In this document: positions 18,501 to 63,487 of the stretch, piece by piece
How the letters are laid out: every line of letters starts with the position of its first letter
Numbering within the stretch: position 1 is the stretch's first letter
From: Ascidiella aspersa
Taxonomy: Eukaryota
Assembly: GCA_963924565.1 (NCBI GenBank)
Contig: OZ004612.1
Location: 12,400,001 to 12,464,000, forward strand
DNA: 64,000 nt
Direction of reading: 5' to 3'
Notes under the pieces: model-generated
What the model was told of the DNA's origin: nothing
Database searches by the model: none
The model's input: only the letters and a program-made list of their open reading frames with translations
Made by a program: the position numbers and the translations under genes

Positions 18501-21500
18501 CGTCCGCACTTTCGGTCATTTTACGAACATTATACTTTAAAAAGCACAATCACGAGAGTTACAAAAAGCGATTTCGAATCACTCTTTTGATTGGCTAAGC
18601 ATCACCTTCGTGGGTCTCCTCATTCGGCCCGGCATGTCGATCAGGTCGGCCACGTTGACGAAAGCTGGGGCCAGCAGGGCTTTGCGCATGCTCGCCGCTA
18701 GGGTCTTGCTGCTTACGCGCGTCAGAATGCTCTCCATCTTGGTCGGCGTGCCACGGCCGCTTCCGCTCGACGAACTGGAAAGGTGGAAGCGAAGGATTTA
18801 GGGCAGTGATTCCCAAACTTTGTGCCGCAGCACACTACTAGTGTTCCTCGAGAGATTGCCAAGTGTGCCGCGAAACTTCTTGTATTTTTGGAAGGTAGAG
18901 TATTTGTATTAAGTAAATGGCAAGTCGCCTGCATTAGTTTTTTTAGCAATATAATGTAGTAAACAACGTATTGTGTTAGTTTTATTTTGGATCCGACGGG
19001 TTAGCAACAAAATAATTTTTTTAATCGGATTAGTGATTACCATTATAAGATACATTTTAGCAAGCTTTTTAACGTATGAACACAATATTTTTTAATGACT
19101 ATGGAATTATAAATTATGCTAATAATAATGTAAAAGAGCCACGGCCAAAAGTAACAAAATTGGAAATTAATCTCCGAAATGACAAAGTTCCTTAAAACCT
19201 GATTATTCACTAATTTCAAGGAAAAAACCCTGACTGTTTATTTATTTCAGGGGTCAGCAAATTTGTTCAATGAAAGAATCACTTGCAAAAATCCCACAAA
19301 AACCATCAAGCCACAAAATTAGTATTGTTAAAACAAATACGGGGTTAACGGGTTAAGCTATAGAAGAGACAAAAATCATGCGGCAAGTCGCACTTCCACC
19401 ACATGCGTTATGCATATTTTAACAACTTACTGCGTAGGACTACGTTTGATGGGTGGGGGGCCGAACCCTTCTTTAGGCCGGCCCATCGGGGGCCCGCTCT
19501 CGGGTCTCGGGGACCGCGTGGGGCCGCCCCCTTCAACCTGGAGCCGGAGGTCTCGGCCGAACTGGTCTTTTCCGCCTTTCGTGTACGGCAAGTCTCTGCC
19601 GAAGCGATCTCTACCGCCTCTTTGTGGCGACCTGGCAAATGTAAAATTTCATTAGTAGAAATTTCACATCATCAATCAGCAGTGCTGCAGAGTCGGACTC
19701 GGGACTCGACGGAGTCGGTTTGTTTTGCTTGGAGTCGGACTCCGGTCTCGAGTAAGACAACCCGAGTTCTTAGTCCGACGTGCGCATTAAATTACGAATC
19801 TAATGAGGCCCAAAATTGGAAACTGTTAAGGCAAAATAGATTAATTTGGAAATTTTTCTAACCATGTATTGCGAATTGATGAAGTATATGATAGCCCTCC
19901 TTATGAGTGGATTTAGGAATATCCATAAAATTTTACTTACTTAAGTGGGTGAATTGCAGGCTGCAGAGTCGGAGCCCGACACGGGACTTAATAAAATAGC
20001 ACATTTGGCCAGTCGGACTCGTTTTTTTTGTGTTTTGGCCGGAGACGAACTCGGGTCCCTTTTTTGGCGACGGTTTTTTTTAACCCCGCAGCCCTGTTGG
20101 TCATTTACGGGTGTATTATGATTGGGCTAAACTTTTTGGTTAAACTAATCTAAAATACCAATTGCGTTTGAATACTGATTTCGGTAGAATCAAAGTGCTT
20201 TAAAATTGTTTTTATACTTTTTATGTGTCGGTTAAGTGTAACTAAATTTTGTTACGATTTTAACAGCATAATACTGCTGTACTAAAAAAAATACGGAACG
20301 GCGACGCCAGGCACTTAACAGCAACAGAATATGTACTTTACTAAAGTTACAGTACATTAAAACTTCTGGTGTTTCACAGCGGTATTATAGGAAACATACA
20401 GTAGGTTGAATTTGAAAACTGTCCGAGTATGATGGTATTAATTGGAGGTGCTACTTAATTACCGTTTATGGTTATAAGTTAATATTAAGAAGAACATTTA
20501 GGCTGTTAAATTGTAGAATATATATAATGCATTATAATAACGTTTCAGTTAATGCTTCAATCAACATCAATACTTTGCAGTTCTTACTATAGCCTTAAAG
20601 ATATATTATAGCTTTATTCTCTATCCAACAAAGCACCCTTAGTGTTCCCAATTTAGATTTTCCCAGATTTTAACAAGATAAGCAACAAATCCACCAACCT
20701 CGACCTGCTCCTGCGTAACTTGCGCGGCGGGGAGCGTCGCTCGTTTCGGCGTGGAGGCGACATGGGGCGCTCGATGCGTCGCGGCGGAGAGACGCTGCCC
20801 CCTCTGGGCGGCGAGTAACGCTCCCTGGGCCTGCCCTCGTCGCCCCTGGGGCGCATTTCCCGCCGGTCGGACTCGGGCGGCCGACGGTGGTCGTAGGGCC
20901 GCATTCTGCGATACAGATTAGAGATTTTTAAGGTGAGAATACTATAGGAAGAACTATTTAGGTAAATTTTATCAATCCGACATTTTAATCTTTCATTAAT
21001 TATGAAGCTTAGGTCCAGTGCGATTTAAAGTATCATCTTTTTATACGAGCTTTCAAATTCGGTACCTTTTCGTTTTCAAGTTAAATTGAAATATGCTTAC
21101 AACTAAAGCGAACACAGCAATAGCAAATCCGTTTTTTTTGTTTATCATGAAAATAGGACTTTTTCACACTAAACGATATTTGGGTGAACAGATTCGTGTC
21201 AAACTTGTTAAAAATACTTCCAAAAAAAGAAAACAACGATTACGAAACAATTTGTAAATGTGGTTAAACTTTCTTTTTCCCGAGCTGGAAAACCGAAAAC
21301 ATCTCCAAATGCCATTTCAAACTACATATCCTTTTAAAAAGATTTTAAAACTAATAAGAACAAAGCGCTTCGAATCAGGTGGCACTGTATAAAGACAAAT
21401 TGTGTTGAATTCTCCACAAGCTTTCGCACAACCGTCAACCGTGCTTCATCAGGTCAAAGTATAAATGAAAACAATTAAAGGGCACATAAAAGCAAAAGCG

Positions 21501-24500
21501 CGTGTAACAGGCGATAAGAGAAAATCAGCCACCTAGTTCCTCTATTTAGAATTAGACAAATAAGGCCATATACAAAGATTCGTTTAAAATAAAGTCTTAC
21601 TTCTCCATCGGCGGTGATTCCGAGCGCCGTACTCGCATGAAATCGCGCTCGCGGTCTCTTTCGCGCTCATCCATGGGTCGCGGCCGATAGCGCTCGTGAT
21701 CGTGTTCACGTTCACGCTCACGAACGTCATACCCGCCGCCGTCCGGTCGCCTCATGTCGGGGTGGTAGCCTGGCGGCGGCCGATTGTCGTGCGGCCGTTC
21801 GTCCGAGTAGCGGCGGATGCGTTCTGCCGGAAAATCGTGCCCGCGACCCGGCGAACGTCGCTCGTGATAGTCGAAGTCTGGGTGCCGGCGCATGTCGGGC
21901 GGCGGCGGGCCTCCGCGGTGGAAATCACGTGGGTCGGGAGAACGGGATCTGGAAGGCGGGTAAGATTGTTTATTCCGTTATTAGGCAAAAGGGAGAAAAC
22001 AATTAGGTTTATAACAGTCGTGGCAAAAAATAACAGTGAGAGTTGCTGTAGAACTGGAGTATAAACCTCCAAATAGTTTATTTAAACGTCAATCATATTG
22101 AAAATTTTTCCAAAATGCTGAACTATGTTTTGCTATGATTTTAAACTTGATATTTGCAATTTGACAATGCCAAATGCATAAAACATTAGATATAAAAACA
22201 CTATATTTGCAATTAAATTTTTAATAATGAACGTCACGATGATAATAAGCGTGATAAGGGATATTCGTTATATTTCTTGACAATCCCAAAATTTTTTAAA
22301 GCTGCCAAATAAAAAAAATCCAACTAATTCAAACAGCCGTCGATCACCTCCTCCTGCCCATCATGTAATCCTCCTCCCTCTTCCGCGGAGGAAAGTCTCC
22401 GCTCCTCTCGCGGAACCTGGGTCGATCCGGAGAGTAGGGACGTCGAGCCATCTGTAGCTCGCGCTCCCGCTGGAGGAGGAGCTGCTCCCGTTTGCGGAGG
22501 TCGTCCTCTATTGCTCTCAGGCGCTCCAGGCTCCTCTCCCGCTGCTCGCTTCGCTCCTCGTGCTCTTTCTCAAAGCGCTCGCGGCCCAGCATCTCCTGGA
22601 TTAAAGTGAGAAGTTTAGCTAACCGCAGGGCTGTACAACATGCGGCACCGCGACATAATACTAAATGTGTTATGCAGCCAATTGGCACAAAAATACTAAA
22701 TGTGTTATTCAGCCAATTGCCACAAACATACTAAATTTGGTATTCCTGAATTTCAATTAAACGTTCTTCATCGAGTGGCATATTGTTCCTTAAAACTAAT
22801 ATCACATATAAGCTTCGCAACAAGTGTTAGCATCTTAAAAAAGCGGCATTTGAGCCAAACTGCATGAAAGTCGAGCTGTGTCCCTTTAAATAAAAAATAA
22901 TTTAAAATTCCGGCTGGTTTTAATCCGACCACAGCGGATTTTTTCGTATGACCATTCAACTTTTTTAGAAACGCTGTCCACAACTAGTCTTCCGGCGTTT
23001 TAAACATTTAATGATAAATCCACGAAATAACCAAAAATCTAATTTTGGTTCGGAACTAGGACACAACTGTATTAAAGTTGCCCTAAAACGTTTAATAAAA
23101 TCACAGTATCCACGGCCAAGAAGTTCCAATCGCTTCGCAATTAAAAACAGTCGACCAATTAAAGTGTAATTTCAAATAGCCAGTTCAAACACGTGTACCT
23201 GTTTATATTTCAGTTTTTCTAGATCATGATGTACGGCTTGCTGCCCCCTCTCAATCGAGTCGCGACGCATTTCTTCCCTCGGATGCGGCGATTGTTCTCG
23301 AGACCTCCGATCGCCGAGCGAGTTGCGTCGCTCCGACTTGTCATCCTGACTCCCGTCTGCCGAGCTCGCTTTCGAATCACCTTTCCCCAATTCCCGCCCT
23401 TCGGTGTCAAACATCTTTTCCTCCTCAGGGGGAATTTTGGGTTTTTCTTTTTCTTGTGGTGGTGGTGGACCCGAAAACGGCGGCCTCGGGCCATGTGGGC
23501 TCCACATACGCGGCAGACCCATCGGACCTGGAGGTCCTATGAGACCGTGGGGCATCATTGGATCCATTGGCCCTCTCGGGCCCATCGGACTCATTGGGGG
23601 ACCGCGTGGGCCCATTGGGCCGCGTAACGGCATGCCAGGAGGACTGAATGGCCCACGGGGACCCATCATTACAGGTGGCCCCATTGGCCTTGGTGGAAAA
23701 GGGGGCCGTCCGAAAAATCCACCTGCAATTTGTGATGTTCGTAATTAATACTACAAAATCAATGGAAGAATTTTTTGTATTAGTTTAGTTAACTTCAGTT
23801 GATGAAATGCCGTCACCTGGCGGTCCCATGCCTAATCCTGACATCTCCAGGGCTCGTCTTTCCTCAGCAATCTTCTGCATTTCCAAAGTTTGGGCCTGAC
23901 ATGGCAAGAAATAAAGTTGTTGTCTCCAATCTACTGCATGTAGTATGTAGTATAATAGAGCCAAGCGGGCCACACAGCTTTAATTTCGCTTTATAAACAA
24001 AAAATATTCTAATATACAGAAAATACTTGAGTAAATCATTTTGATCCGCAACCTTTTTTTTAGTTAAGTTAAGGCACACTTAAAAGAGAACAAAATTTCA
24101 ACGGCCCACCCGCTAAATATCTGTAAATCGACAATAGACACAGAAAACATCAAAGGCAGCCTAAAGTGCACCAAATAACATTCCTTTATCTTTCAATTTT
24201 GGTGTATTACGGTGCTCCTAAAATATTAAAGGCCACTCAATATCGAAAGATTTTATTTTTTTGCAATAAAGGGTAGTTCTCGTTCCGCGTTTACGCAGTA
24301 TAAATACGGAAAAACAATGTTGTCTTATAAACGTGCTAATCGACTTTCGTGTTAAAAATCGACTGGAAGTACATATGACTTCAGACATCAACGTAATATA
24401 GGTTTCAAACGTTTAAAACAACAAGAAAAGTTAACAATTTTTAAATCAACCACAATAGCTCCTAACTCTAAAACCTGGTTATAATATATATTTGCTCAAC

Positions 24501-27500
24501 CAAACTAAAAGGTGTTTTAACTTACATAAAGTGGATCTAATCGCTGGGCTTCTTCAAGTAGCTCTCGTTCATGCAAAGCCCGAAGCAGTAGTTCTTTTTC
24601 CAACTGAGGATCATGCTTGAGCTAGAACATTTTTGAGAATTGCATTACAACGTGTAGTGAAGTAGATCGACAGCATCTTGATTAAGACGTTTCGATACGA
24701 ACTTGTATCATCTTCAGTTAGTGTGACGTACAAGTTCGTATCGAAACGTCTTAATCAAGATGCTGTCGAGCTACTCGAGCTTTTTGGCTTTGAAATTTAT
24801 TATTAAGCTACATTACAGATCCGTGCATAGTGTACCCAAACGTGTAGTGAAATTATCAATTACACTTGAAATAAAAAGTTCTAAAAATGCGCTAAACGAA
24901 ATCTTTGATGACGGACCACTTATGTTACAAAATAGGTTTGTTAGTCCACGAAAAAATCAGTTGAAAATGTGATTTTTTGACAAAAAAAAAATACAATAGC
25001 TGCAATATTTTCAGTTAGTTTAAATTATTAACATATGTCAGGTAAATAAAAAATCGGTAAAGGTATCCGTATCACTTGACAAAAACATAAAATTCGAACA
25101 TCAGTAGCGGTCCAAAAAACATTTAAAAAAGGTGCACACATGAAAACCTACCAGATCTAACAAAACCTAATATTTTCAACAGCGTGTGGTAATATACTAC
25201 AAGAATTTTTTCATACAACAATAAATTAGAAAACTCAATACTTCGGCTCTCAGAACAATAAACATTATTATCATTGGCGCTGTTGCGATTACAACTTATC
25301 GACTCACATATTCCTGCAGCAAGATATCGTCCTTTATCCCGGCGTAATCCTGCAAAGTGTCAAGGCCAAGAAGATCCATGAGAGGGTCGCCAGTTCCAAC
25401 CTTGGGCTTTTCCAAAGCACCAGGAGCCTTTGTAGCATTTGCCAGGGCGGGGTCCAGTCCGAGGCGCTGCAACAACGCCGCTTCTATTGCTTCCTTGTCC
25501 AGGGTTTGTTGGTCCTTTGCTGGAGGCTGATCCTTACTTCCACCTGGAGCTTGTTGGTCCGGTTGATTCTTATCAGCACCCTCTGCTATTGGCAAGTTAG
25601 CTGGCAGCTCACCGCTTTAAAATAAATTTCAGCTTTTTTTCTAATCTTCTCTTAATTGTATTTAAATATCACAAGTGAAGGTTGACTTGTTATTACGTTA
25701 TTTTCAATGCAATCAATAAACTTTGTTAAAAAAAATACTACAGAATTGAACGCTACAAATCCAATCACTTTAGGTCAGTGCTTCCGAACGGATGGCTCGC
25801 GATCTATTTCAGGTGGGTCGTAAAGCTATTTCAGGTGGGTCGCAAGGCATTTCTAAATGTTACAGATTTCTATTTGATCAGGAAATTATTGCATTATCAT
25901 TACGTAAAATAAATATGTACAATTAGAAGTGGTGTGTCGCATAACTATTTCAGTCTGTACGCCAGAAGTAAAGATGCAGGTTTTATGTAACTGTTAATCT
26001 TAGTTCCAATCAGTTCCATTTTAAATTATTGCTAAACAGGGGTTAATGTAATTTATTTGAACTCTCTAATTTTGTTGGATTCTTTTTATAGTCACAAAAT
26101 GGATATTTTTGAGCTTTATCATTCATTTGTTTTTTATTCGTTTGGTCCAATACTGGTAGCTCATTGTGGGTCACACAATAAACTTGCATTAAAAGTGGGT
26201 CGCGAACTGAACAAGGTTGGGAAGCACTGCTTTAGGTTACTTGATTTAAATTAAATACAATTGCTTTTTGATTTGGCAATACCTGGCACGAGTTTGTTTG
26301 ACTATTTTGACAGCAGACAGTATGTTCTTTAGATCGAGACTACTGAGCGATTTTGCCTTCTCCAAAACAGCACTTGTGGTAACCGATGCAGGCGACTTGT
26401 CAGCAGAAGTGATTGGCTTGGCCGAAGAATCACTCACTTCAAAAGAAAAATTGTGAAGATAAATAAATAAATAAACGTTTTGCAGAAAATTAAGCTCACT
26501 GTTATAAAAACATCATGTAGTTAGCTATCACAATGGTACATCTTTAATGTTGTGAATCGGTGGTTTGTTTTATGGCCATAAAGAGCTTAATACAATAAAC
26601 AAAATAATACATATAAGACTATTTTTAGACTTTGTTTCTTATTGCAGAACCTGTGACATGTTTTTCACACAATTCAGGACCCCTGCAGTTAAATTGTGGA
26701 AACAGAGGCAATTTTTTTATCAGGCCAGTTTAAATTCAGCGACAGGAACTGAATATTGACAGAAATTATTGGTAAACCTATATTTATTAGCCTATCTTTA
26801 TACTTTTAACCCAGTTTTATGCCGCTATTAAGCTCCTGTTGATTTTGACTTTTGTTTTATATTAAATGTACACTGTTGAATTTGTTTGGTCAAGATCGAT
26901 CCCATCAATTTTTGCAGTGTAAAGTCTTTTTAACAATTTCAGAAGCTTCAAAAGTGTGATAGTATTTAATTATATAACTAATCCTTTTTTGTGATTAATA
27001 CTTTGTGTCTAGCCTAGTTATTGTTAAGGTGAAACATTTAAATCTAACTGAGAATACTGGTATGTATGTGAGTGACTAAGAAACATGGTTTTATTGATTT
27101 ATGCCAATGTACATTATTAATGTGGCTCTTTTGAGTTCAAATTAAAAAATGTGGTTCTTGGTCTCTTACTGGTTGTTCACAACTATTTATGCCTTTGTAC
27201 TTTAGGTTATGCAAGTATATATCTTTATTGTTGGTAAGTCTATACATATATATATATATATATATATACTTATGCGTTTATCACAATAATCTACCTTTTG
27301 GTTGCTTGATAGCTTGTAGGTGTTCCTGAAGCTTCTTTAAATTGTCACCCTTAAAGAGTGGATTGTTTTGTAAAACTTCAGTCAAATTGGGTTTGCCAAA
27401 CCCAATCCCTTGTTCTCTTCCAAGTGATGGACGATCTGGCACAGATGGGCCTGCACTTCTTTCCCTGTCTCCTGAAGACACGGAGCTGCTCCGATCCAGA

Positions 27501-33572: not shown

Positions 33573-34201
33573 TTTGTCAATGTTGTTGTTGTCAGTCACT
33601 GCATTAACCGGGTCGGGTATGTTTCATGCCAAACATAGCAAAACCCTTTATTCCTGCAGTCACTCTAGATTAATTAATACAATTATTCAATTAAATGAAC
33701 AAAAAGAAACTTGCAACCATAAGGTGTGAAATATGGGCACATTTTAAAATGCCTATAAAGTGTGCATACTTTTTTTTAGAACGTGCACACTTTTTCAAAC
33801 CCAATAGAGTAAAATTAATGGTTTGTACTAACTGCCACGAAATCACTTGACAAAATCAGCAGCTATTTACTACTGTGAAAAATAGTACATCACAAGTGTT
33901 TTTCAACACAACCCATTTTTAACCAAATGTTAAACCAAGAGAGCAAAACTATAGTCAGGCTACAGTTTTCGATAATAATTCCTTTACTATCGTGCAAGTT
34001 TATCTAATAAAATGCAATACAGCAGGGAAAATGTTAATCTTTCACTCTGATACAGCCGAACAATTTTAGTCTACAAAAACTTTTATTTTAAATTAATGCA
34101 CAGTATTTGGGTGTGGGTGGTCTTGCACCCAAACCCAAATGATGTTACCAATATAAATCCCCCGACGAAAATGTGGTAGGATTCTACACCAGCGCCTTTT
34201 C

Positions 34202-34613
34202 GGCGCTGGTCTAGAATCCTACCACAACGCGCATTATTTGGGTTAGGTTGCGGGTTAGCGTTTGGGTTAAGGTGGGTCAAGTATTATTATTGGCGCTGGT
34301 CTAGAATCCTACCACTACGAAACACCATTTGGGTTAGGGTGCGGGTTAGCGTTTGGGTTAAGGTGGGTCAAGTATTATTATTAAACAAAGAATATAATAT
34401 TACTTGACCCACCCACACCCAAACGCTAACCCGCACCCTAACTCAAATTTTGTGCGTTGATTTTAGAACTGTGGTAGGATTCTAGACCAGCGCCTTATTA
34501 TTAAATAAAGAATATAATAATACTTGACCCACCCACACCCAAACGCTAACCCGCTACCTAACTCAATTTTGTGCGTTGATTTCATAACTGTGGTAGGATT
34601 CTAGACCAGCGCC
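34202..34613. mobile_element. GG-terminal MITE (Merlin-like) containing a nested copy of itself (34292-34494)
   Basis: 24-bp TIR GGCGCTGGTCTAGAATCCTACCAC starting at 34202 and 34292, inverted copies ending 34494 and 34613; inner 203-bp copy flanked by 8-bp TTATTATT duplication; an extra right-end TIR ends at 34196. Confidence 0.85.
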
Positions 34614-36549
34614 GATTTTTCTTTAGGATTATTGAATATTCGAAACTACAAAGAAATGTACTTGAGTTCCGAAAATCAATCAATTTGGCTGCACTGGACG
34701 GTGTGCTGTGCAGTAACCTTCCATTAGCGGCAAACCTGAAGTGTGAAGCAAGGACAGCTGTTCTACCAATGGTTAACGTTGAGAGCAACGGAGGACATTT
34801 TTAATTTTAGCTCTAAAACTTAATACAAAAAGAGTACAAACCGTGAAGTGTTACTATGTAAATTTGTGTAAATCAATATAAACAAAACTTTATTGGAATT
34901 CACAAAAAAAATTATAACGCATGTGTAACTTAAAAGGGCAGTGTAATCATATATAGCCAAAACATGGCCACCTACTTAAAAAACGCGTGCCGAAATACTT
35001 AACTACGTTGTTTTGTTTACCCAGAACGCATCTATGTACTTTTTTGATTAGACCAAATAGCTCAAATAAAACCAAAGAGAAATCTCTTTGTATAAAACTA
35101 TGCTTGACGTCACCCAACACTTCTGTTGTAATCCCAACGCTGGCTTCATTGTCGCTCAAAACAAATGGTTTAAAGCAAAAATAGATAATGACACAACTCT
35201 TATCATCTGAAATATTGGTTTTAATATTTGTTGAATATTTTAATGATTTGCAAAGTTGTTCGCGTGTTACAAAAAATGATGTGTTGTCCTCAACAAAGTA
35301 ATGATAAAGGGCGGAAGTTAACTGCTGTAGCCTTTCAAGAGCTTTGAAGTCTAAAACAGTTTAACAAAAGCATTGCTACTTAATTTGCATGTTTTATTTA
35401 TTCCGACGTTAGTGCGAATGGCAAAAATAGGAACAGCAGAAGCGGGAGAGAAGAAAACAGAAGCGACAAACGAAAGTGGCAAAAGTAAATCTACGATCGA
35501 TTCAGCTGAAAAAAAAATTGCACAAAGCGTAAATTTTCGAATACCGCTAGAAGTCGCGCCGCTACCGTTTTAGGTAAAACTAATCTGAAAGGCTAATAAT
35601 TATGCCAATGAAGATCGGAGATGCAGCCTTGCTTGAACAACTATCGCAAGAAAACTCCATGCTGAAATAGGTCGTTTAAGCGGCTAAATGTCTAACTAGC
35701 GGCTTAAGGTTCATGTCGTGACCGCATTAATGAAAACGTTTGTTTTGAAACACGTGTTGTCACTTGGAAGGGTGTAAAAGGCGCCTGGTGAACCGCCATT
35801 CTTGGCAAAGCTAGGCAACAATGCCATTCATACTCAACGCGGCATGAATAACAAAATGAAGCAAAAAAACGAAATTGATTTTACCACATCAGCTGCATTC
35901 TTACAAATTCGGCCAAAGCGGCTCGTTGAAAAAACAGAAAAAATGGCGTTATGCTAACGGTGTGAGTTGTATTGAATATTATTGGAGCCACGTTAGCAGT
36001 GCGATATCGTCGAAAATTAACAACAGATGATATGTTTGGTCCCGCAAGATGGAAAATGCAGTAATTTAACAGGCTTGTTTTTTTCTTGGAAAACAGAATG
36101 ATAACGGCATTTTTAATACTTTAAATTGGTTATAGAAACATCAAGAAATATCTCAAACGTTACCATAATACATTTTCGTTGCTACAAATCGGAATTGATT
36201 TCATAATAAGGACTGCGCCGAAAGGAAGAAATAAATATTGGCCGAGACATATCTTTAGCAAAACGGAATGACAAAACATGGTATGATTATAAATGCAGAA
36301 TTCAGTTTACAGAACGAAACAGAACTTAAAAGCTTAACGTAAAAAAAACAGTATTGAACGCATCAAACTCTTTGGTATCAGATAAAAGTTTTCAAATGGC
36401 GTTGAAATCACACGCCGTCGCGGTAAAATAGAGCAATTAAGGAGAACACACACACACACGACAGCAGCCAATCGTCGGCGAACTGTTGCGAAAAGGTTTC
36501 AATCTCGAAAAGATTCGGACAGCAAGTAAGGACCGCGGCCCACATACCG

Positions 36550-60800: not shown

Positions 60801-63487
60801 ATTCAGCAGTATAAAGGTATCAATAACATGGTTTTCTATTAAAATATTTTTTATTGATAAACTTATGTTAAAGTTTATGTTGGTAACAAAATTGACTTAC
60901 AGAGGTATGTTTCTTATACTATACTCTCATAACACTATGCAACATTTTTGGCTAAACTTTTGACCATCCAATCAGATACTAAGTATCTTTTTACTCAGTT
61001 AAATAATACCTGATCACAGCTATAGGTTCTAATCTAATACTTCTAATGAAGTATATTGGCATTGCGAGTATCATGCAGGAATTAAAGCTCTGAACAACAC
61101 TTTGATAATTTTTTTAACTACTGACGAAATTGAACATGGAAAAGAATCGGTGAGTAATGATTTGTAAAAGTGTAGCATGTGTTTTGCATTTCAGTTCTAT
61201 CAAAGGTAGGTGTTTCAATGCTTTAAATGCCTGTGCCAAAATGAATGTGTGCTTAAAATGCAGTATATACTTAACACAGTCTAAACTGCAGATCTAAACA
61301 TTGTAGCGAAATAAGTACACACCTGTTGCGACTCCATTAACAATTCCTTGAACTGTGTTTTCAGTTCAAAGCGCCGCTGCTTGGCCTCCAGCTCCATCCG
61401 GTGGTTCTGGAAAATCAATTCGGCCTCTGCAGTTTGCAGAAGCTCAAAGGGAATCCTACGATCCTCCATTGACTTCATGTGCTCAGATTCATACCAGGGT
61501 GGATTGTGGTCTTTTCTCTCCAGCATTATTATCCAACTAAAAGCAAAATGGCTCGTTATGGTTTCAACAATTTGCTAATACAGTAATATTAATACCATGT
61601 CTTATTGGAAGGAATAAAAAAACTTTTATAAAGTTACACAAGGTAATGGTAAATTTTGTTTTATCGTTGAGAAGCTGTGTTGCAGTAAAATAAATGTAAC
61701 TGGCAAACTTGGTATGTTTTTGAATTTTACCCTGTACTCTGTATTTCAACTAATAACGTGCGTCTGGTGGTCTATATTATCTCACCTAATTACAAAAAGG
61801 CATAACATTTCTATGCAGTAGTGCAAGCGGAATGTTAAAACTGATTTCAGAGACAGCCAGACATAAATGCCAATAATTAAACATTTCTAATGAGTAAATA
61901 TTCAACCAATATATACATAATTGATTTTTCAACAGAGGTAAAGTCGTTAAAATAAATTTACCATTTCCATGTGTCACTGAAATCACCGGAGGACAAAAAT
62001 AGACAGAAAAAACACTAGCTGTCATATTTTGCCCCCAGGGCAAGGTGTCATAAAATAAAGATGTAACAGCAACGATAATAAGAACATTATCACTGTATAC
62101 CACACTTCTCACTGTTATGGAATAGAAACATTCAAACAAAACTTAATGCATGCAATGCAACCTGTGGAGTGATTGCAAAACATAAAAAAGCACAGCGATT
62201 AAAAAAGAGGGCTAATAGTCAGAAAAATGCAAACAGAACATAACTAACTAATCTGTCAAACAATTTAGCCACTTTGTAAACCTGTTTTTATTGTTTTGTA
62301 TATTAAAAAAATAAACTAACATAAGTTTAATGGTGAAAATAACGACCCAAATAGACGTAAAAAGCGACGTGCTTTATTGTTCAAACGTTTCGGCAAATGC
62401 TCATGCCATCATCAGTGATTAAACAATAAAGCATGTCGCTTTTTACGTCTATTTGGGCCATTATTTTCACCATTAAACTTATGAACAGATCTGTATAAAA
62501 ATAGTGTTCCAAACTGACATACTTTTTAAACTTTGGACTTTCAGTCATGATTGTGCGGGTTTCATTCCATGTAGGTCTTATGCATCGAGCATCAGGCAGA
62601 ATAATTTTTAGTGCTCTTGGAAGGTAGCGAAGGTATTCGCCTTGCAGTTTTAGGCGGTATTCATCTTTCAGCCGAATGACATGCTTGCGGAAAATCTTTG
62701 AAGCTGCATTTGTGCCTGCATCGCCAAAAAACTCAATTTTAGGTGTTGAACTAGAAACAGTATGTCTACCAACTGCTTAAATTTAACAAAAAAAATAATT
62801 CATACTGTCAAGTTTTTGTAAGGTTTGGAATCACTGTTATGATTAACTTTTCTGTTTGAGATCAACTTTTCATCATACAATCCTACCTTCCAGCTCAATA
62901 TATCGGATATACTGTGGCTCATCTTCAAGAGTTTTGCGAGCCACCTGCCAAGACTCTTTGTAATTGGCCACTTTGTTTTCAAGAAGCTTCTCCAGCTGCT
63001 CTTTGGCGTCCTTAAGAATGTCTCTCCTAACCAGGGCAGCATCCTCGAATGATATAATCTAGTTGGGTTGAAAAGAAAAACAAATGAAGAGAAATAATAG
63101 TTAACATTCATATATTCATTTTATTGTATATATTTTTTAGAGCACATGTTTTCCAGCAAATAAGGAAGTTGCAGCCCCAATTTGATTAAGGCAATTAAAT
63201 GCAAGACACAGCAAAATTCAGTTCACTAAGCAAACCTTTGATTTGGACCGAGTTGTCTTGTCAATTAGCTGGGCAAGATAGAGGAATGCAAGGGTGACAT
63301 TAATATTCTCTGATGCAGAGGTTTCAATGACAGCAAGTCCACTGCCCTTCTTTCCAACAGCAGTTGCCGCAAACTTCTCCACTTCATGTATAAAAGCGGG
63401 AACTGCTTCATCGCATTTCGTCAGGGCAACGACGATTGGTTTTTTGGTCTTGGCAATGTAATGGTAGCAGTTTTGCACGAATTTTAC
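36808..63487 (-). CDS. ARHGAP35: p190 Rho GTPase-activating protein (ARHGAP35/ARHGAP5-like), 5'-partial, 24 exons in window
   Basis: Exons (minus): 63487-63236, 63058-62887, 62715-62523, 61536-61323, 59847-59740, 59610-59486, 59196-58923, 58521-58361, 57642-57522, 57254-56987, 56375-56113, 55515-55256, 54567-54456, 53916-53739, 52183-52116, 51679-51530, 50887-50676, 50258-50039, 49701-49552, 46518-46332, 44378-44301, 40395-40258, 39543-39438, 36991-36808. N-terminal GTPase motifs ([22 protein letters not shown]), FF domains ([18 protein letters not shown]), pseudoGTPase segments, RhoGAP domain ([44 protein letters not shown]). Cannot be assigned to A or B paralogue. Confidence 0.92.
43132..43660. 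repeat. Diverged tandem duplication (about 320-bp period) in p190 intron
   Basis: TAGATTTGCCAGCCGCTGAAAAATAT..TGTAGTAAAA..AAGGGTTGTTTG..ATTATAAAGCAGTGA..AAAAAACAATTGT occurs at about 43132 and 43451. Confidence 0.8.
52458..52780. repeat. Tandem duplication (about 168-bp period) in p190 intron
   Basis: TAGTATC.TTGAAGATGGTCAAACTCAATAT..AATTTAACATAGATTGTACATAGATAGTAAACATGTTTCACTGCATTTTCTATA..TTGTTTCAGAGCACTAG twice. Confidence 0.85.
57674..58158. mobile_element. hAT (Charlie/Buster-type) MITE in p190 intron
   Basis: Perfect 16-bp TIR CAGTGGTCGGCAAACT / AGTTTGCCGACCACTG, perfect 8-bp TSD GTTTAGGT (57666-57673, 58159-58166). Confidence 0.9.
62324..62510 (+). mobile_element. Foldback mini-retroelement (Penelope/retrozyme-like) in p190 RhoGAP intron
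   Basis: 11-bp direct repeat AAACTAACATA (62313-62323) / AAACTGACATA (62511-62521); 62-bp inverted arms 62320-62381 / 62422-62483 (3 mismatches); hammerhead core in the 40-nt loop; 3' tail ACAGATCTGTATAAAAATAGTGTTCC. Confidence 0.8.
62381..62418 (-). ncRNA. Minimal type I hammerhead ribozyme core (HHR-2)
   Basis: Minus strand reads UCA-CUGAUGA-U-GGCA-UGAGCAUU-UGCC-GAAAC-GUU^UGA: conserved core, 4-bp helix II, palindromic AACGUU helix III, NUH site GUU, 3-bp helix I. Confidence 0.75.

Follow-up and report, generated by a model that had tools for sequence, protein, structure and literature searches.

The 180-nt insertion at positions 24661-24840 of the window, the 64,000-nt stretch of DNA analysed as a whole, is ordinary mobile DNA, one more stub of a Penelope-like element (PLE) of a known kind. 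We hold it to be very probable that it is the remnant of two PLE pseudo-LTRs (pLTRs) lying head to head between copies of a target-site duplication within a spliced intron, that its hairpin probably arose as a side effect of integration, and that the minimal hammerhead (min-HHR) motif covered by this hairpin is likely inert singly. An intronic hammerhead in the sense orientation with a hairpin beside it needs no adaptive story. The insertion consists of two pLTR ends facing each other and bracketed by a 13-nt direct repeat, with the following parts:

24649..24661, no strand: first copy of the target-site duplication, an exact 13-nt repeat of which 1-2 end bases are common to the element ends
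24661..24727, minus strand: inverted, truncated pLTR arm that contains the hammerhead and matches family copy L050 at all 67 nt (100%)
24729..24840, plus strand: 5'-truncated pLTR copy without CUGAAGA that reaches the fixed 3' end, 97% identical to L050
24809..24840, plus strand: PLE tail of about 32 nt, found on just one arm in most two-arm copies
24839..24851, no strand: second copy of the target-site duplication, equal to 24649-24661

The repeat family is present in high copy number, with 2582 candidates in the genome search, of which 40 were scored, and DNA depth is about 600-1070 on the element compared with about 3-7 on its flanks. Runs X1 and X4 were left out of the evidence for presence of the insertion, as their records reach just 22-29 letters into the element. 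When the palindrome served as query, 30 loci were fetched and all 28 distinct copies were head-to-head pairs of one unit, although a palindromic query biases the set toward such copies. Every one of these 28 copies has one arm that reaches reference position 208-216 and another that stops at 150-199, mostly about 30 nt short, which is the signature of the PLE tail as described in PMC8557442, PMC11167929 and PMC3846280. Flanking repeats of at least 8 nt accompany 17 of the 28 copies (13 nt in 8 of the 28) versus 2.8% among 756 mismatched flank pairs. A further search, restricted to the core side of the element, returned 30 loci, reduced to 27 after the duplicates L032, L034 and L049 were dropped, the window copy included. 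Judged from these sequences, an antisense arm upstream of the core is the ordinary head-to-head PLE layout, an inverted partner being present in 19 of the 27 copies; the partner covers GAAAC-GUC in 12 of the 27, and none lies within 700 nt in 8. RNA reads of run X8 over the tail arm (24738-24854) favour the pLTR-sense direction by about 3:1 (depth 40 versus 12.9) and are family-derived.

The unit also forms the repeats that flank a PLE-type RT at the loci L061 and L064. The order at L061 is an inverted pLTR (539-669), an RT frame with an RVT_1 match (E 6e-5), a hAT-like insertion, further coding frames and a direct pLTR with tail, and the last, C-terminal frame shares 52% identity with the C-terminus of the intact 848-codon sister element L066. 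Pfam gave no match on the C-terminal frame of L061 or on L066, and the related L071 matches PF01541 (GIY-YIG) weakly (E 7e-4), short of the curated cut-off. RT sequence is linked to parts of the unit's 3' region in L063, L064, L065, L067 and L087 as well, and motifs of the DKG and YVDD types, named as in the available text of PMC8557442, are visible in the L063 and L066 translations. The layout of L061 and the RT links at other loci together identify the unit as a PLE pLTR. In a set of 30 loci, no uninterrupted ORF belonging to the window copy's exact family was found. It is extremely improbable that the insertion is instead a foldback DNA transposon or MITE, or an assembly artefact, with an incidental likeness to a hammerhead; such an origin would suit a short, palindromic, high-copy element with no Rfam match at the gathering score, but the arms differ from each other and end at variable positions, flanking duplications are of various lengths, palindromic junction variants occur in independent reads and contigs, and the occurrence of the unit as the pLTRs of RT-bearing elements at L061 and L064 largely refutes it.

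Several related elements were also seen. The insertion interrupting the parent PLE (L061:3228-5147) carries a 640-codon hAT-like transposase frame with weak hAT matches. In the sister PLE (L066:589-3132 and L069:589-3228, both minus strand), an uninterrupted frame of 848-880 codons starts inside the hammerhead, and both pLTRs carry HHRs. A further PLE family with long frames (L071-L077; C9:23484684-23496551 and others) includes four tandem copies about 2.7 kb apart on C9; the min-HHR descriptor has no match in the L071-L077 loci. Longer copies of the window family have a stretch of pyrimidines that ends in CAG immediately 5' of the hammerhead, for instance L209 near 5000 (minus strand), which resembles the PLE intron acceptor reported for D. 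virilis in PMC4209133; this stretch with its CAG is gone from the window copy and is kept in the sense orientation by L209 in a predicted INTS4 intron.

The closest known systems are the head-to-head inverted pLTRs of C-terminal EN+ PLEs, represented by Pen2/Pen2a of Adineta vaga (PMC3846280) and by the general scheme of PMC8557442, whose accessible sections both describe an inverted pLTR with a one-sided tail, with target-site duplications of 8-10 bp in PMC3846280. As in EN+ PLEs, the pLTRs here are inverted with a 30-40-nt tail on one arm, and the target-site duplication is short and variable, being 13 nt at the window copy, where no empty site was seen. Unlike Pen2/Pen2a, the window copy comprises two pLTR fragments without an ORF, and its family consists mostly of short stubs. 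The Anolis element Poseidon PAc, as far as its description in PMC11167929 goes, shares an AUG where stem II begins, a tail produced by two preferred 3' ends, and an A/C-rich end; the AUG frame, however, stops after 9 codons in the window family, and opens the 848-codon frame in the sister L066. With the min-HHRs in the available part of PMC4209133 the window motif shares the lack of loop III and the extra nucleotide in the core. It differs from the S. mansoni min-HHR in a helix II of 5 bp (7-8 in S. mansoni) and a helix I of only 3 bp, and in being single rather than tandem and placed beside its own antisense copy. Non-LTR retrozymes, in the accessible text of preprint 10.64898/2026.07.22.740005, are likewise non-coding, HHR-bearing, PLE-related and dispersed, but are built of head-to-tail tandem units, each with an HHR, whereas the units here are head to head with one intact core.

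Such a structure could arise during integration. The endonuclease of the element would make cuts in the two target strands about 10-13 nt from each other, and each cut end would prime cDNA synthesis on pLTR RNA, starting at the tail end in one case and further inside in the other; both cDNA copies would stop near the hammerhead and would then be joined head to head. We infer the joining of two cDNAs from the published PLE layout, the tails, cleavage of both strands and two RT starts. The relevant passages of PMC11167929 report cleavage and extension on both strands with two RT start sites, and those of PMC3846280 prefer self-priming on the antisense template for head-to-head junctions. In transcripts of either strand, head-to-head geometry would always put an antisense arm upstream of any core.

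In the window copy, this arrangement leads to a strong hairpin in the pre-mRNA, and the elements concerned are:

24686..24717, minus strand: minimal type-I hammerhead core, with an architecture as in the accessible part of PMC4209133
24729..24775, minus strand: 5' part of the opposite pLTR copy, which forms the antisense arm of the pre-mRNA and pairs with 24707-24661

The arms 24661-24707 and 24729-24775 form an inverted repeat of 47 nt each, 98% complementary, with a 21-nt spacer. Folded on the minus strand, 24600-24850 reaches -99.7 kcal/mol compared with a shuffle mean of -49.7 (z -11.2; 0 of 200 shuffles equally stable), which bears out the foldback of 24775-24729 onto 24707-24661 claimed in the original prediction. 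Its estimate of about 40 nt between the hairpin base and the exon acceptor was also accurate, as 40 nt separate the base from the AG at 24623-24622. The claim that only CUGAAGA is left in a 21-nt loop holds for the length of the spacer but not for the MFE fold, in which the hairpin loop is 12 nt and G8 and A9 of CUGAAGA are also paired. The 13-nt direct repeat around the insertion and its high copy number go unmentioned in the original prediction.

The core reads 24717-24686 on the minus strand, with CUGAAGA at 24717-24711, an extra U at 24710 after A9, a 5-bp helix II (24709-24705 with 24698-24694), GAAA at 24693-24690 and C17 at 24686; the predicted cut site lies 64 intron bases upstream of the 96-nt exon. 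Helix III is a palindromic AC/GU without a loop, and since GAAAC directly abuts GUC, a single copy would be unable to close it. Most hallmarks of PLE min-HHRs are present, namely CUGANGA, the extra nucleotide, a G10.1-C11.1 helix II, GAAA, the palindromic helix III and UH; helix I falls short of the usual 4-5 bp, with just 3 bp (24720-24718 with 24685-24683) here and in most family copies, and 5-7 bp in a few. The motif departs from canonical monomer-active hammerheads in lacking loop III, and an Rfam scan of the window gave no match at the gathering score. The bare pattern CTGANGA..GAAA occurs five times in the window versus 3.1 expected, which is not above chance, and the full min-HHR descriptor has 7 matches in a contiguous 864 kb versus 0, 0 and 0 in three Markov controls.

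Folding indicates what the arm would do to this core. With the arm present, helix II has a pair probability of 0.0; the value is 0.39 when the arm is removed and 0.99 in the intact pLTR, and helix I is at 0.0 in each case. A forced hammerhead-like fold costs 41 kcal/mol with the arm, 11 without it and 10.5 in the intact pLTR, and the forced two-copy active fold lies 10.5 kcal/mol above the cofold minimum. The hairpin is thus predicted to sequester helix II, GAAAC and GUC, and folding (helix II 0.0 versus 0.39) supports the proposal that the upstream arm physically masks them. Nevertheless a lone copy of the hammerhead probably has no activity whether or not the arm is present, because of its architecture and the behaviour of the motifs of other species: in the accessible results of PMC4209133 a single PLE min-HHR motif showed no detectable cleavage in vitro and multimers had low activity, and in those of PMC11167929 the Anolis PLE HHR cleaved only with the element's protein. 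The window hammerhead would need a second copy of the same family to complete helix III, or the element's protein, so the host probably tolerates it regardless of the arm. The helix III partner, we infer, would have to be another transcript, as the other core in the gene region (at 21452) has an AGCU palindrome that would be incompatible with the ACGU found here. No pile-up of read ends was found at the predicted cut site, a weak test at this low depth.

The original prediction went on to suggest that the foldback neutralises the ribozyme and could thereby explain why a sense-strand motif is tolerated. Masking is supported by folding as above, but its role as the cause of tolerance is not, given the unmasked sense cores in other introns, the min-HHR type of the motif and the ordinary PLE layout. 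A control is available in the same gene region:

21372..21519, minus strand: copy of a second high-copy min-HHR repeat family, sense to the host transcript, with its intact core from 21452, in the spliced intron 20906-21600

This second family has 1473 candidates, an AGCU palindrome and a helix I of 6 bp in most copies, and no antisense arm for the 21452 core was found in the window. Compared with its family, the 21452 copy has a loop II 7 nt longer and one mismatch in helix I, and its helix II is not predicted in context, so this control core may be disabled in another way (damaged helix I). The introns 20906-21600 and 24622-25308 lie on the same strand in the same gene region and belong to separate X3 contigs. 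A palindromic stub elsewhere in the window (62320-62483) has a min-HHR core from 62415 (minus strand) wholly in its loop, with a helix II probability of 1.0, and this core resembles the pLTR HHR of L091.

The orientation of family cores relative to host genes was assessed with an exon-chain caller trained on the same 60 10-kb loci. At a score of at least 35, which was required for a call to be kept, 11 of the 60 real loci were called versus none of the 60 reversed loci, leaving 49 of the 60 without a call; calls at scores of 20-34 (L231, L241, L257 and L260) were dropped, as the null gave 3 of 60 in that range. A first orientation test on loci of 3-6 kb was uninformative, with just four cores called, two of them in the window. 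The called loci were:

L209, L211, L234, sense: unmasked cores in predicted introns
L220, sense: partly masked core
L207, L217, L227, L229, L242, antisense: unmasked cores
L249 (sense), L253 (antisense): masked cores

Pfam matches back the gene and its strand clearly for L209, L211, L217, L227, L229 and L242 and weakly for L207 and L253, and are not useful for L220, L234 and L249. Downstream exons alone carry the matches at L209 (INTS4, E 2e-10; helix II probability 0.8) and L211 (WD40, E 1e-6; helix II probability 0.9). Together with two cores from the 864 kb and two in the window, the 11 called loci make up a tally of 15 cases. Unmasked cores are 4 sense versus 6 antisense (p 0.75), a small sample compatible with a moderate depletion of unmasked sense copies, and masked cores are 3 sense versus 2 antisense, with a Fisher p of 0.61 for masking versus orientation over the 15 cases. 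That unmasked cores of the same family lie in predicted INTS4 and WD40 introns speaks against a need for the arm. The lack of in vitro cleavage by lone min-HHR motifs in the part of PMC4209133 cited above also implies that masking is probably not needed.

Selection for masking would require the core to cleave in vivo, either as a trans-dimer or with a PLE protein, and sense intronic copies to persist mainly when an arm blocks them. This is quite unlikely, even though helix II is lost in the presence of the arm, which pairs with the whole of GAAACGUC, family RNA with the sense core is present in X8 (16 sense versus 22 antisense reads at 24721), and PLE HHRs are activatable by protein according to the available sections of PMC11167929. 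It is at odds with the unmasked sense cores in L209, L211, L234 and at 21452, the lack of a masking-orientation association and the emergence of the arm with the insertion geometry, and to a lesser degree with the missing read-end pile-up. Selection on genic HHR elements does occur, as tandem HHR repeats are under-represented in introns of Xenopus in the accessible part of preprint 10.64898/2026.07.22.740005. Selected masking would indirectly indicate that PLE min-HHRs cleave host pre-mRNAs in vivo, which the cited papers leave open in the sections considered. We likewise give only slight credence to a broader scheme in which head-to-head integration of PLEs muzzles their own ribozyme and, wherever a protein or partner RNAs activate min-HHRs, self-masked stubs are favoured in sense introns, their hairpins tuning exons or feeding small-RNA silencing. 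No title on antisense masking or on hairpin siRNA from inverted pLTRs was found among those listed in literature searches, which does not imply an absence of publication. The genome suits a test of masking, with many near-identical masked and unmasked copies.

For the host gene, the intron and the exon next to the insertion were defined by spliced contigs:

24622..25308, minus strand: host GT-AG intron containing the insertion, with the joint 24621-25308 in an X3 contig of depth 16
24526..24621, minus strand: host exon of 96 nt, open in frame, present in spliced contigs, with the acceptor AG at 24623-24622

None of the runs containing the stretch is recorded as RNA; run X8 was included on the basis of its species label, and X3 behaves as spliced contigs. 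The 96-nt in-frame exon that had been placed near the hairpin is real, both of its junctions being GT-AG joints in X3 contigs; one junction is also seen in two X8 reads. The X3 and X8 individuals may or may not carry the insertion. The host protein may be YLPM1, whose C-terminal P-loop region it fits. A homologue search returned no named homologue, the atlas gave P-loop kinase look-alikes or nothing useful, and Pfam gave weak P-loop matches on one of five exons.

It is quite unlikely that the hairpin affects this gene, whether by making the pyrimidine-poor acceptor in front of the 96-nt exon less used or as a target of ADAR or Dicer. A 47-bp stem does lie 40 nt from an acceptor with few pyrimidines, and skipping of the exon would keep the frame. 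The spliced X3 contig does, however, contain the exon, and none of the joints listed (15 of 25) skips it; the shallow RNA data offer nothing for the suggested exon skipping. The idea of a dsRNA substrate for ADAR or Dicer found no RNA support, with editing neither shown nor excluded by shallow data and multi-copy reads (RNA depth on the gene is 1-4, and reads over the element come from many copies). All seven RNA differences listed inside the element are also present in DNA run X7, and editing could not be assigned to the window copy. In addition, the window copy is young by its identity to L050, and its co-option is therefore unlikely.

Other repeats are found elsewhere in the window. The next intron upstream (about 25800-26230) contains other multi-copy repeats with raised DNA depth, and positions 34200-34615 hold a complex nest of direct and inverted repeats of 90-120 nt.
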